From Escherichia coli (lineage in GTDB: Bacteria > Pseudomonadota > Gammaproteobacteria > Enterobacterales > Enterobacteriaceae): a DNA stretch of 64,000 bases. A program made the translations under genes and the position numbers. The stretch lies in assembly GCF_003334765.1 (NCBI RefSeq), contig NZ_QOWT01000023.1. One strand, 5' to 3'. Shown here one piece after another: positions 16,351 to 42,496 of the stretch (position 1 is its first letter; the number at the start of each line of letters is the position of its first letter). The notes below the pieces were generated by a model that did not search any database, was not told where the DNA came from, and saw only the letters and a program-made list of their open reading frames with translations.

Positions 16351-16450
<100 letters not shown>

Positions 16451-17403: not shown

Positions 17404-17492
17404 TGTAGGCCGGATAAGGCGTCCCCGCCGCATCCGGCACAGGCACCGTGCTGATGTCTGATGCGACGCTGGCGCGTCTTATCAGACCTACA
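17404..17492. repeat. REP/BIME element
   Basis: tgtaggccggataaggcgtccccgccgcatccggca plus a second inverted REP-like unit. Confidence 0.8.
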
Positions 17493-23507: not shown

Positions 23508-24938
23508 TTAATCTGTGCTTTGTTCTGCCAGTCTGGCGATTTGTTTTGCCATTCCGCGAAAAATAAACAGATGCGCGGGGATCATCAATAACCAGTAAAA
23601 CAGCCCCGGCATACCGTGCGGATGCCAGAAAGCGCGGACATCGATAGTACGATAGTCGCCTTTATCTTCCAGGCTAAAACACAGTCGTCCCAGCCCCGGC
23701 GCTTTCATGCCAAATAACAACGTAAGTTGTTTTTCCGGTTCAACGACAATCACTTTCCAGCTATCCACCGCATCGCCAGTCTGTAAATATTCGCGCTCCG
23801 GGCGGCCTTTCGCCAGCTTATGACCGATCGCGCGGTCCATCAACGCCCGTGTCTGCCACAAAATATTGCCAAAGAAATAACGCTCTTTACCGCCGATTTG
23901 GTTCACTACCTGCCATAAAGCAGCAAGGCTGGCGGACGTTTTAACGGTAAACCCCGCCTGTTTGGCAAAATAACCGTACTCCGGTCGCCAGCGGGCAAAG
24001 GCCTGAGCGTCGTAGCCCCAGTCGCTGGAGTTGACCAGTTTTTCCTCCTCTTTCAACGTGCTACGTACCGCGTCATCGAAAGCGATCAGCCGTTGTGGGA
24101 TGAGTGCACGTAGCGCGGTATCATCCGCCAGCAGATCGTGTTTCAGCCCCTGAATCAACGCCCTGGCGGTGGTGGGCGGTACGGAAGTAATCACATTGAG
24201 AAACCACACCGAAATCCAGCGGGTGGGGAGGGGGATGGGGATCAACCAGCGGCGCTTACCGCTCACCGCCATAAAATGTTCAAACTGTTGCTGATAACTG
24301 AGCACCTCTGGTCCGGCGGCTTCGAAGATGCGGTGTTCGCTGGCCGGATGATCTAACAACGCAACCAGATAGTGCAGCAAGTTTTCCAGCGCAATGGGCG
24401 TGGTGCGTGAACGAACCCAGCGCGGAGGCGTTAAGACTGGCAGGTTGTAGACCATATCGCGCATGACTTCGAACGCCGCGGAACCTGCGCCAACGATAAT
24501 TCCGGCCCGCAGTTCGGTCACGGGTACATTCGCTTCACGCAGAATGTCCGCCGTAGCCTGACGAGCACGCAGATGATCCGACTGCTCATGTGGCGGGGCC
24601 TGCAACGAACTAAGAAAGATTAATTGCTTAACTGGTACTTCACGTAGCGCATCGCGGACGTTGAGAGCCACCTGGCGCTCCTGAGCGATAAAATCGCCGC
24701 CTTCGCCCATGCTGTGCACCAGAAAATAGACCGTATCGATATCCTGCAACAGGGCCGGTAGGTTATCCGGCCAGCTGAGATCGACTTTATGGCAACTGAC
24801 GTTTGCCAGTTGCAGCTTTGCAAGCCTGTCGACATGACGTGCCGCCGCCAGGATCTGATGCCCTTGCTGGCTGAGTGTGCGCACCAGATGCTGACCAATG
24901 TAGCCACTGGCACCGAGAACTAAAATGCGTTGCGGCAC
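23508..24938 (-). CDS. ybjT: NAD(P)-binding domain protein YbjT
   Basis: 476-aa product, N-terminus (V/M)[17 protein letters not shown]; GTG start at 24936-24938 inferred. Confidence 0.88.
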
Positions 24939-27705: not shown

Positions 27706-27837
27706 GGTTCTCCATCTCCTGAATGTGATAACGGTAACAAGTTTAGTTCATCTGACGGAGGGGGAAGGGATGGGAGAGAAAGGAGGCACTAACGGTTAAA
27801 TAGCCCGATGAAAGGAATATCATCGGGCATAAGGCGA

Positions 27838-30613: not shown

Positions 30614-31513
30614 TTACGCAGAGAAAAAGGCGATGAGGATCGGCACTAACAGGCTAAGAATAAAACCGTGAACAATTGCCGCCGGGACCATATCCAGCCC
30701 GCCAGTACGTTGAAGAACGGGCAGGGTGAAATCCATTGATGTGGCACCGCATAAGCCCAGTGCAGTAGAGCGGCTGCGGCGAATCAGCCCAGGGATCAAC
30801 ATAATAGCAATCAGTTCACGGGCCAGATCATTAAAAAACGCCGCGCTCCCGATTACCGGACCAAAAGATTCGGTCAATAAAATACCGGAAAGAGAATACC
30901 AGCCGAAACCGGAGGCCATTGCCAGCGCGGTATTGATGGGGAGATCAAGAATAAAGGCGTTAATTAAACCACCAATTAATGAACTGACAACCACCACCAC
31001 GGCGACAATCATTCCCCGGCGATTAAGGACAATCTGCTTTAAGGTCATGCCATTATTGCGCAACTGAATACCAACGAGGAAAAGTAGCAAAATTAACGTG
31101 TATTCACTGGCTTCGGTTGCGTGTTGTAAGAAAGCCAGTCCACTTAGACCAATGGCAAAACCAATCACTACTACGCCGCACAGTTTTAGCGACTCCAGCG
31201 CCATCGCAATACGCGACGGGAGTTTTTCTTGCTGATGGTGGTTGCGCCACGGCAGGCCTCGCTCCAGCCACATCAGGGCGGCAATATTACACAGTAAAAT
31301 AACGGTAATACTGACGGCAGAATAATGCAGAATCGCCAACAGGTTACTGGCGAGGTTATCGAGAAACGCCAGACTGATACCCATAAAAAAGAGAATAAGG
31401 TAAACCATCCAGCTTAATAGCTGATTAATAACTTTTAACGCAGCTTGTTGGCGAAGCGGAATGAGGTAACCCACAATCAGGGGAACCAGAATGATTAACA
31501 GCCCAGAAAACAT
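30614..31513 (-). CDS. ybjE: lysine exporter LysO (YbjE)
   Basis: 299-aa membrane protein starting MFSGLLIILVPLIVGYLIPL; start at the ATG at 31511-31513. Confidence 0.9.
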   Translation of the reverse strand: MFSGLLIILVPLIVGYLIPLRQQAALKVINQLLSWMVYLILFFMGISLAFLDNLASNLLAILHYSAVSITVILLCNIAALMWLERGLPWRNHHQQEKLPSRIAMALESLKLCGVVVIGFAIGLSGLAFLQHATEASEYTLILLLFLVGIQLRNNGMTLKQIVLNRRGMIVAVVVVVSSLIGGLINAFILDLPINTALAMASGFGWYSLSGILLTESFGPVIGSAAFFNDLARELIAIMLIPGLIRRSRSTALGLCGATSMDFTLPVLQRTGGLDMVPAAIVHGFILSLLVPILIAFFSA

Positions 31514-31968
31514 GAAAACCCAGTCCTTGCAAAGATGAAGTCGAAATGCGCGATGACACACTACTGAAAGCGGAAGGACGAGTAAAGTTGCAATTAAAAG
31601 GAAATGTTATGCATAAGGAGCAGTAGAGTATTCGTTTTCATTTAAAGATATTCTTGCGCTTTAATTACAAACTGCACCGATGTTGGTGGCGTCAAAATCG
31701 CCGAGGCGTTCCCTGAAGGCCGGGGCAGCCCACATGGATGTGGGCTGAGGGCGCGTTTTACAGGGATGTTACCTCGCGCCCGACCCGGTAGCCGTAAGGG
31801 ATAAGTCGAGGGCACCGCGCAGCGGCGATTTTGTTCGCCAGAGCCCGGGGGTGCAGGGGGCGGCGGCGATTGGCCGCCCCCTGCGCGCTCCTTGCGCCAG
31901 TGGCAATATGTTGCTTAGCTCATGAAAGGAGCGCAACAAGATGATGAATCAACATATAACAACATCTT

Positions 31969-31997
31969 AAAAAAAGGCCTGACATTACGCCAGGCCT
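31969..31997 (-). terminator. rho-independent terminator of aqpZ
   Basis: Hairpin aggcctg...caggcct with T-run on the minus strand immediately 3' of the aqpZ stop. Confidence 0.6.
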
Positions 31998-32007
31998 TCT
32001 GCGTTAA

Positions 32008-32703
32008 TTAATCACGCTTTTCCAGCAGGGTCCGGTAAATCAGACCACCGATAATGCCGCCGACAATTGGCACCACCCAGAAGAACCACAGTTGTTCTAA
32101 TGCCCAGCCGCCCTGGAAGATAGCAACCGCGGTGCTGCGCGCCGGGTTAACAGAAGTGTTAGTCACCGGAATACTAATTAAGTGAATCAGGGTTAAGGCC
32201 AGACCAATAGCGATCGGCGCAAAACCTGCCGGCGCGAATTTGTCGGTTGCGCCGTGGATCACCAACAGGAAACCTGCACTCAATACCAGTTCAACTACCA
32301 GCGCGGAAAGCATGGAATAACCGCCTGGTGAATGCTCGCCATAACCGTTAGAAGCAAAACCGCTGGCTGCCGCGTCAAAACCCGTTTTACCACTGGCAAT
32401 TAAATACAGCAGCGCCGCTGCAACAATACCGCCGACAACCTGGGCAATTACGTAGCCAACGACTTCTTTTGCCGGAAAACGTCCGCCAGCCCATAAACCA
32501 ATAGTGACCGCCGGGTTAAAATGACCACCAGAAATATGACCAACAGCAAAGGCCATCGTCAGAACGGTCAGACCGAACGCCAACGCCACGCCGGCAAAAC
32601 CAATGCCTAATTCCGGGAAGCCTGCGGCCAGTACAGCACTACCACAGCCACCAAAAACAAGCCAGAAAGTACCAAAACATTCAGCTGCTAATTTTCTGAA
32701 CAT
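32008..32703 (-). CDS. aqpZ: aquaporin Z
   Basis: 231-aa MIP-family channel with two NPA motifs (HFNPAVT, NPARS). Confidence 0.96.
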
Positions 32704-42408: not shown

Positions 42409-42496
42409 GTTCACTGCCGTACAGGCAGCTTAGAAATTCACAGGTAACATACTCCACCCGCCCACCATGTTCACTGCCGTACAGACAGATAAAATG
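42409..42496 (+). CRISPR. type I-F CRISPR remnant: two repeats and one 32-bp spacer, no cas genes in window
   Basis: Repeat 1 gttcactgccgtacaggcagcttagaaa (42409-42436) is the 28-bp E. coli/Yersinia subtype I-F repeat. Spacer ttcacaggtaacatactccacccgcccaccat (42437-42468). Repeat 2 gttcactgccgtacagacagataaaatg (42469-42496) is degenerate at its 3' end. Confidence 0.85.

Follow-up and report, generated by a model that had tools for sequence, protein, structure and literature searches.

The GC-rich block located between lysO (ybjE) and aqpZ in the 64,000-nt stretch of Escherichia coli DNA analysed here (hereafter the window) is the TRIP1a repeat containing the replication risk sequence RRS-lysO, one of two near-identical, opposed elements that flank the terminus region, and very probably acts as DNA and not by way of a gene product. 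This assignment was made because the window is identical to the K-12 strain MG1655 at the published coordinates of both TRIP1a and the RRS-lysO deletion. The identity is 100% over NC_000913.3 914500–915800 (window position being K-12 position minus 883344), within which TRIP1a has been placed at 915016–915281, with TRIP1b after putP and TRIP1c beside yohI/dusC (Li et al. 2024, PMC10888264), and RRS-lysO was deleted by Pham et al. as the segment 168–389 bp upstream of lysO (PMC11194060). The G-quadruplex (G4) motif published for RRS, GGGGGTGCAGGGGGCGGCGG, was found once on the plus strand and not on the minus strand. The TRIP1 family was first described by Rudd in 1999, and again in 2023–2024 (Li et al. 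2024, PMC10888264; Pham et al., PMC10287960, PMC11194060). When compared with the TRIP1/RRS elements on record (Rudd 1999; Li et al. 2024; Pham et al. 2023, 2024; Kusi-Appauh et al. 2026), the window copy was the same in sequence, locus, G4 motif, dusC paralog and short putP copy, and no differences were noted. The window as a whole is not K-12, as the IS cluster at 55300–58300 is common to only eight of the 5,426 complete E. coli genomes.

The GC content, estimated in 100-nt windows, was 0.56–0.73 over 31650–31949 and 0.37–0.41 in the flanks (31550–31699 and 31900–31999). For the unit 31672–31937 the values were 0.61–0.73, with 0.37 in its flanks. Folding of the 266-nt unit as a single strand gave an energy of -143.4 kcal/mol (RNA, plus strand), and the z-scores against 200 dinucleotide shuffles were -4.9 (RNA, plus strand), -4.7 (RNA, minus strand) and -7.0 (DNA, plus strand), the observed energy being reached by 0 of the 200 shuffles. 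From this GC contrast and these z-scores, the structured block pointed out in the original prediction is real. The block is present at the extent then given, 31690–31930, and the natural unit is slightly larger (Table 1): conservation across the family runs from about 31668 to 31939, and in the lysO copy of K-12 type and the dusC copy in flipped orientation the similarity extends to 31646–31948. The sequence gcccacatggatgtgggc at 31728–31745, taken at first for a perfect 18-bp palindrome, is not strictly so and represents an inverted repeat with 10-nt arms around GG; three further inverted repeats were found, namely the closing stem and the stems of hairpins 3 and 4. The unit is situated between the terminator of aqpZ (32008–32703, minus strand) and lysO (30614–31513, minus strand). 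The terminator hairpin was not listed by the simple terminator scan of 31400–32100.

Table 1. Positions of the TRIP1a/RRS-lysO unit and its parts in the window
Feature	Position	Strand	Description and basis
TRIP1a repeat unit, 266 nt	31672–31937	G-rich "sense" strand on +	Corresponds to MG1655 915016–915281
RRS-lysO, 222-bp "replication risk sequence"	31681–31902	+	Mapped from lysO start at 31513
Closing stem around two-hairpin module	Arms 31693–31708/31818–31833	+	16 nt, 88% complementary; present in minimum-free-energy fold and extended there
125-bp internal module (hairpins 1 and 2)	31709–31833	+	Alignment; BLAST; missing from short forms (K-12 TRIP1b, short inverted lysO allele)
Hairpin 1	31726–31747	+	Arms CAGCCCACAT (31726–31735) and ATGTGGGCTG (31738–31747), 10 nt, 100% complementary, GG spacer
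Hairpin 2	31749–31781	+	GGGCGCG...CGCGCCC; loop motif CAGGGATG at 31761–31768, family consensus CAnGGAyG
RRS G-quadruplex motif GGGGGTGCAGGGGGCGGCGG	31847–31866	+	Exact match to motif published in PMC11194060
Hairpin 3	31853–31884	+	Perfect 12-bp stem, GCAGGGGGCGGC (31853–31864) and GCCGCCCCCTGC (31873–31884); overlaps G4 motif
Hairpin 4	31885–31934	+	GCGCTCCTT (31885–31893) and AAGGAGCGC (31926–31934), 9 nt, 100% complementary; interior variable
aqpZ intrinsic terminator hairpin	31974–31998	-	AAGGCCTG...CAGGCCTT, then T-run on minus strand; about 31 bp from TRIP1a; inverted repeat

The non-match to the REP consensus was confirmed: the REP-derived naRNA4 model matched nothing in 31300–32200, even at E<=10, and did match 17408–17488 elsewhere in the window. 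TRIP1 resembles REP/BIME in being GC-rich, hairpin-forming, intergenic and located just downstream of genes, and the Klebsiella TRIP1-like unit adjoins a REP, but TRIP1 is about 270 bp in length against about 35 bp, is present in 1–5 copies against hundreds, and carries no REP consensus. The guess of a different repeat family was therefore right, TRIP1 being a low-copy family distinct from REP/BIME; a known repeat family had also been named in advance as the outcome that would count against the prediction, and this is essentially what was found. The two other readings then offered, a small structured RNA and a protein-binding site, are unsupported for the block, and a role at the level of DNA, as a replication obstacle that triggers gaps, was absent from the options. 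The sighting was thus correct, but the element is already described and experimentally characterized, and its re-finding adds nothing in itself.

The internal 125-bp module is bounded by imperfect 18-nt direct repeats (31708–31725 and 31833–31850), and the same 125 bp are absent from TRIP1b as described by Li et al. (2024, PMC10888264). For analysis of covariation, ten long Escherichia copies and five Klebsiella copies were compared. Among these 15 mutually related copies, both sides were changed in 14 of 78 base pairs, with 98.7% of cells paired, while the slid control, in which the 3' partner was moved by 1–3 columns, gave 0–2 such pairs; the ten long Escherichia copies by themselves gave seven both-side-changed pairs against 3.0 +/- 0.9 in shuffles and 0–2 after sliding by 1–3 columns. 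At least one compensatory change was seen in each of the major helices, among them the closing stem, hairpin 1 and hairpin 3. In the closing stem, G-C was replaced by C-G in the Klebsiella copies. Hairpin 1 included three compensatory pairs in the copy type TRIP1d, and its loop-closing pair was changed from A-T to G-C in Klebsiella; hairpin 2 showed a G-C to A-T replacement in TRIP1d (in the Escherichia-only analysis) and a rebuilt stem in Klebsiella. Compensatory changes were found in four pairs of the hairpin 3 helix, and the outer stem of hairpin 4 was invariant around an interior that varied across copies. The loop motif of hairpin 1, CATGGATG (31733–31740), was invariant in all 15 copies, and that of hairpin 2 was CA(G/A/C)GGA(T/C)G throughout. 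Template-switch mutation at quasi-palindromes can also give compensatory changes without selection, and covariation is the same for hairpins of DNA and of RNA. Taken across the two genera, the covariation and the conserved loops point to the hairpin scaffold and its loops as the selected features.

The identity, the anatomy and the conservation of hairpins come from the sequence analysed here, and the polymerase block, the gaps and the effects on topology from published experiments. Peaks of single-stranded DNA carrying RecA and SSB on the lagging strand at lysO and dusC vanish upon deletion of RRS (PMC10287960). The G-rich strand halts three polymerases, Pol I, II and IV, at the G4 site and slows the replication of M13, and RRS causes gaps wherever it is placed (PMC11194060). 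Loss of both RRS copies was obtained only alongside a large amplification, or when inverted copies took their place; deletion or inversion of both alters global supercoiling (PMC11194060), and the engineered inversion of both is reported to abolish the gaps (Pham et al., PMC11194060). In single-molecule experiments, a gap was formed at essentially every encounter with a replisome when the G4 strand was the lagging-strand template, and fewer in the other orientation (bioRxiv 2026). From these observations together with the anatomy, the following order of events may be proposed. When the fork unwinds the duplex, the G-rich strand would fold into a compact multi-hairpin structure composed of the long closing stem, the two hairpins with CAnGGAyG loops, the 12-bp G/C hairpin overlapping the G4 motif, and the terminal hairpin. 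The folded strand would block lagging-strand synthesis, and the replisome would skip ahead, leaving a gap of single-stranded DNA, up to about 2 kb long, to be loaded with SSB and RecA. Pham et al. hypothesize that such programmed, transient gaps could be topological relief valves around the Ter domain, a physiological purpose that they infer.

The contribution of the G-quadruplex itself was evaluated within the window. The G4Hunter score of the GGGGGTGCAGGGGGCGGCGG motif was 1.84, which places it among the top 0.02% of 25-nt windows; the canonical pattern of four G3+ runs with loops of 1–7 nt was not found, and only a G2+ pattern could be fitted (31847–31873). Tracts of stronger or similar potential exist at 24210–24252 (G4Hunter 2.44), where GGGTGGGGAGGGGGATGGGGA fits a canonical four-run G4, and at 27750–27786 (1.76). 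Since other sites of the window score equal or higher, G4 potential alone does not single out the RRS site, and the hairpin scaffold probably matters as well. Only two prominent gap peaks were reported genome-wide (Pham et al., PMC10287960) and none has been published at 24210–24252, a point that counts against the explanation given above; both tracts could be used as internal controls in asking if a high G4 potential is by itself enough to produce replication gaps. The K-12 TRIP1b retains hairpin 3 and lacks the 125-bp module and the first G5 run, and the restriction of prominent peaks to two (PMC10287960) suggests that this short form is not an RRS. In one K. aerogenes copy (GGGAGTACAGAGGG / CCCTCTG), a G-C to A-T change in hairpin 3 keeps the stem and breaks both G5 runs. 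This again is awkward for a role centred on the quadruplex, and the compensatory nature of the change suggests that selection may act on the hairpin rather than the G4.

A 291-bp query covering the element matched all of the 5,426 complete E. coli genomes, at a median of three places per genome, and the central 125 bp alone behaved in the same way; the copy number, for which a BLAST-type check had been suggested, is thus low. For the full copy between yohP and dusC, the identity was 91% in O157 and Ecol_867 (about 305 bp aligned) and 94.1% in K-12, where it spans 272 bp on the opposite strand. The short K-12 copy between putP and efeU was aligned in two pieces separated by a 125-column gap, and the further copy type, TRIP1d, was located between alx and sstT in non-K-12 strains. 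The orientation of these copies was not constant. At yohP-dusC, 3,311 of the 5,426 genomes were K-12-like and 2,000 were flipped relative to the flanking genes, while at lysO-aqpZ 4,029 genomes were K-12-like and 928 carried the inverted allele, 896 of these in the long form; at both loci, the spacers were non-homologous between the two orientations. For TRIP1a, these figures match the "direction" counts given by Li et al. (PMC10888264), and for TRIP1c the match is looser. Natural flips in such numbers fit poorly with a strict requirement that the G4 lie in the lagging-strand template.

The same difficulty arises in O157:H7 PV15-279, in which both copies are flipped with respect to K-12, with the G-rich strand on minus at lysO and on plus at dusC and the flanking genes in the K-12 orientation. 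Judging from synteny, in a record where oriC and dif were not located, the G4 strand would lie on the leading-strand template at both loci. This double flip reproduces in nature what was engineered in the double-inverted strain, in which the gaps are reported to be lost (PMC11194060), and is an arrangement that the main explanation does not readily accommodate.

Outside Escherichia, one K. pneumoniae chromosome contained the element at 13 places, in unrelated intergenic sites, including one tandem pair, and adjoining REP-like sequence; about 13 dispersed copies are at odds with a simple model in which two sites flank Ter. The Klebsiella TRIP1-like units (record L018, 1489–1845 and 1914–2282; records L019–L021, about 1926–2290) were longer on the left and preceded by the REP-like sequence and a shared AATTTATTCACCAT spacer. 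Two units were in tandem in K. pneumoniae strain 176, and in the copy of L021 hairpin 3 was extended to a near-perfect palindrome of about 56 nt, giving rise to spurious Rfam matches to microRNA precursors. An exact scan of 100,044 species genomes with the 19-mer CATGAAAGGAGCGCAACAA, which is too strict to recover other genera, detected six Escherichia loci and one match in a Desulfomonile MAG, where only the 19-mer was common, at about the chance expectation estimated for a 19-mer in 298 Gb.

This dispersal raises the question of whether the element is a selfish or recombination-spread intergenic repeat of MITE- or BIME-like character, with the effect on replication as a by-product of its structure. 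We consider this somewhat unlikely, and it is compatible with the RRS explanation. The Klebsiella copies argue for it, as do the presence of the element at lysO and dusC in either orientation with non-homologous spacers, the five locus types of E. coli TRIP1, in all of which a stop codon lies 38–96 bp upstream of the element (Li et al. 2024, PMC10888264), and the near-identical Kluyvera copies found despite a divergent genome (Pham et al., PMC10287960), which suggest horizontal spread. At alx-sstT, loci with and without TRIP1d have non-homologous segments in place of one another, and not a clean insertion: the K-12 locus (record L022, 3547–3760), compared with the TRIP1d-bearing record L014 (405–835), contains a different GC-rich inverted repeat (GGGAGAGGGTCGGGGTGAGGG ... 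CCCTCACCCTAACCCTCTCCC), so that no clean empty site is seen there. Against the proposal, no terminal inverted repeat was found among 21 inverted pairs, nor any target-site duplication or associated transposase, and a MITE in the usual sense was rejected on these grounds together with that of the empty site. The E. coli copy number is also very low for such a repeat, the opposed pair persists even where both copies are flipped, and conditional essentiality and effects on topology have been published (PMC11194060).

With respect to carriage by mobile replicons, the phage collection gave no match to the element, and the "plasmid" matches proved to be chromosomal fragments or mislabelled chromosomes. 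Two records labelled as plasmids, pMTY11352_3 and pZ1323HEC0475-2, carried the chromosomal hcr-hcp-lysO-aqpZ-ybjD segment, extending in the latter to poxB and macA; one of the two showed a 75-bp internal deletion of the element (window 31705–31779) and the other the inverted allele in its short form. Such records may have arisen by faulty assembly or by excision of chromosomal segments.

At gathering thresholds, the Rfam scan proposed in the original prediction gave nothing in the block. Below threshold, the best match by cmscan was TwoAYGGAY (RF01731), on the G-rich strand at 31692–31831, with 30.6 bits against a gathering score of 43. For each of the long Escherichia copies, too, no Rfam model scored better, and the match always lay on the G-rich strand, at 25.9–36.9 bits and below 43 in all cases; in four Klebsiella loci no match to it was obtained at E<=5. 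TwoAYGGAY has been described by two loops with AYGGAY and a P1 stem that is often very long (Weinberg et al. 2010). The closing stem of TRIP1, with its 16-nt arms, agrees with the long P1, and loop 1, AUGGAU, conforms to AYGGAY, while loop 2 is AGGGAU (AAGGAC or ACGGAC in other copies), so that a pyrimidine is not always present at the second position. AGGGAU or AGGGAC is also seen in some of the Psychromonas sequences in the original TwoAYGGAY alignment. The two are alike in the arrangement of a long closing stem around two adjacent hairpins with AYGGAY-type loops, and the Psychromonas ingrahamii members are likewise multi-copy within a genome; they differ in that TRIP1 scores below threshold, has AGGGAU or AAGGAC in its second loop, is unmatched in Klebsiella, and possesses extra 3' hairpins and the G4. 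In the portion of the original alignment that was available, none of six E. coli accessions looked for was found, and among the literature matches listed for TwoAYGGAY there were neither TRIP1 nor RRS papers. The resemblance is a lead, rather than evidence of family membership. We consider it unlikely that the 125-bp core might be a diverged TwoAYGGAY and that the orphan motifs of Psychromonas, Clostridia and gut metagenomes might be of the same kind as the enterobacterial RRS, each a stem presenting two CAnGGAyG loops to a common factor or folding pathway in single-stranded nucleic acid. The O157:H7 double flip and the Klebsiella copy that keeps the hairpin while losing the G5 runs point in this direction, and together would mean that the selected feature is the hairpin scaffold, not a lagging-strand G-quadruplex.

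The conservation of the loops could also reflect recognition of the two CAnGGAyG hairpin loops, on single-stranded DNA or RNA, by a protein acting in trans, for example a factor that binds as a dimer, or a recombinase or transposase specific for hairpins. Across the 15 copies of the two genera loop 1 does not vary and loop 2 conforms to CAnGGAyG, while adjacent stem pairs change by compensation, and the same duplicated loop motif defines TwoAYGGAY, which is multi-copy in Psychromonas. However, no candidate protein came to light, no linked gene was common to the loci, short forms without both hairpins persist (TRIP1b), and the kinetics of folding could equally constrain the loops, so that such a recognition site appears very unlikely.

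A structured TwoAYGGAY-type non-coding RNA, produced from the G-rich strand with a cis or trans mode of action, was judged to be most improbable. In its favor are the Rfam result for the long Escherichia copies, the shared architecture of two adjacent hairpin loops, AUGGAU and AGGGAU, in a long closing stem, and the covarying stems and conserved loops. One-sided substitutions were also mostly G.U on the G-rich strand, at about 9–10 sites against four that were wobble only on the other strand, but this asymmetry was not statistically significant and the structure had been predicted on the G-rich strand in the first place. The Rfam scores are all sub-threshold with Klebsiella unmatched, and the covariation is equally expected from single-stranded DNA hairpins or from quasi-palindrome template-switch mutation. 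Scanning of 31400–32100 detected neither a sigma-70 promoter nor an intrinsic terminator, and because both scans were empty there is no support for a discrete transcript. In addition, the orientation relative to neighbouring genes flips among strains, and the element is explained at the DNA level by published experiments.

A leader followed by a small ORF (AAGGAG, then ATGATG, within 31926–31945) was rejected: the ORF has only nine codons here, its ATG falls beyond the unit conserved across the family and is found in neither TRIP1b nor TRIP1d nor the copies of Klebsiella, and AAGGAG is the 3' arm of hairpin 4, a stem arm and not a demonstrated Shine-Dalgarno sequence. As a separate observation, in the flipped dusC-type arrangement (record L008, 1163–1246, minus strand; L010, 8390–8470, plus strand; L003, from about 3219), AAGGAG...ATGATG opens a conserved ORF of 26–27 codons (MMKLNKRFIVSNMLRFHYYRSLSISIA), which extends into the 3' end of dusC in the antisense direction, so that it may be conserved simply on account of dusC.

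Several other features were recorded elsewhere in the window. The IS cluster mentioned above is annotated in matching genomes as IS200/IS605 tnpA, IS3 and IS1, and its Rfam matches were STnc100 (55373–55587), STnc490 (55594–55717) and group-II-D1D4-3 (56423–56593), the last being a strong match to group II intron domains 1–4 (113 bits). A single CRISPR-DR4 repeat was matched at 42409–42436 (50 bits, above the gathering score) and may be a remnant repeat. Ordinary known features were the RybB sRNA (4632–4710, 105 bits), ES036/CssrF (16386–16428) and the REP-derived naRNA4 noted above.

TRIP1a/RRS-lysO is biologically important: no bacterial chromosomal sequence described earlier had been proposed to programme gaps after replication and to influence chromosome topology around the terminus (published 2023–2026). 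The only other example cited by Pham et al. of bacterial G4-forming DNA triggering gaps is the pilE G4 of Neisseria gonorrhoeae (PMC11194060), which differs in that it is of unrelated sequence, serves antigenic variation at a single locus, and is without the multi-hairpin scaffold. What might be new here is the covariation across genera, the conserved loops, the orientation counts tied to flanking genes, the double-flipped O157:H7 and the resemblance to TwoAYGGAY. The natural dimorphism of orientation at both loci, including double-flipped lineages, the cross-genus covariation with its conserved loops and the possible link to TwoAYGGAY may be useful to those who study RRS.
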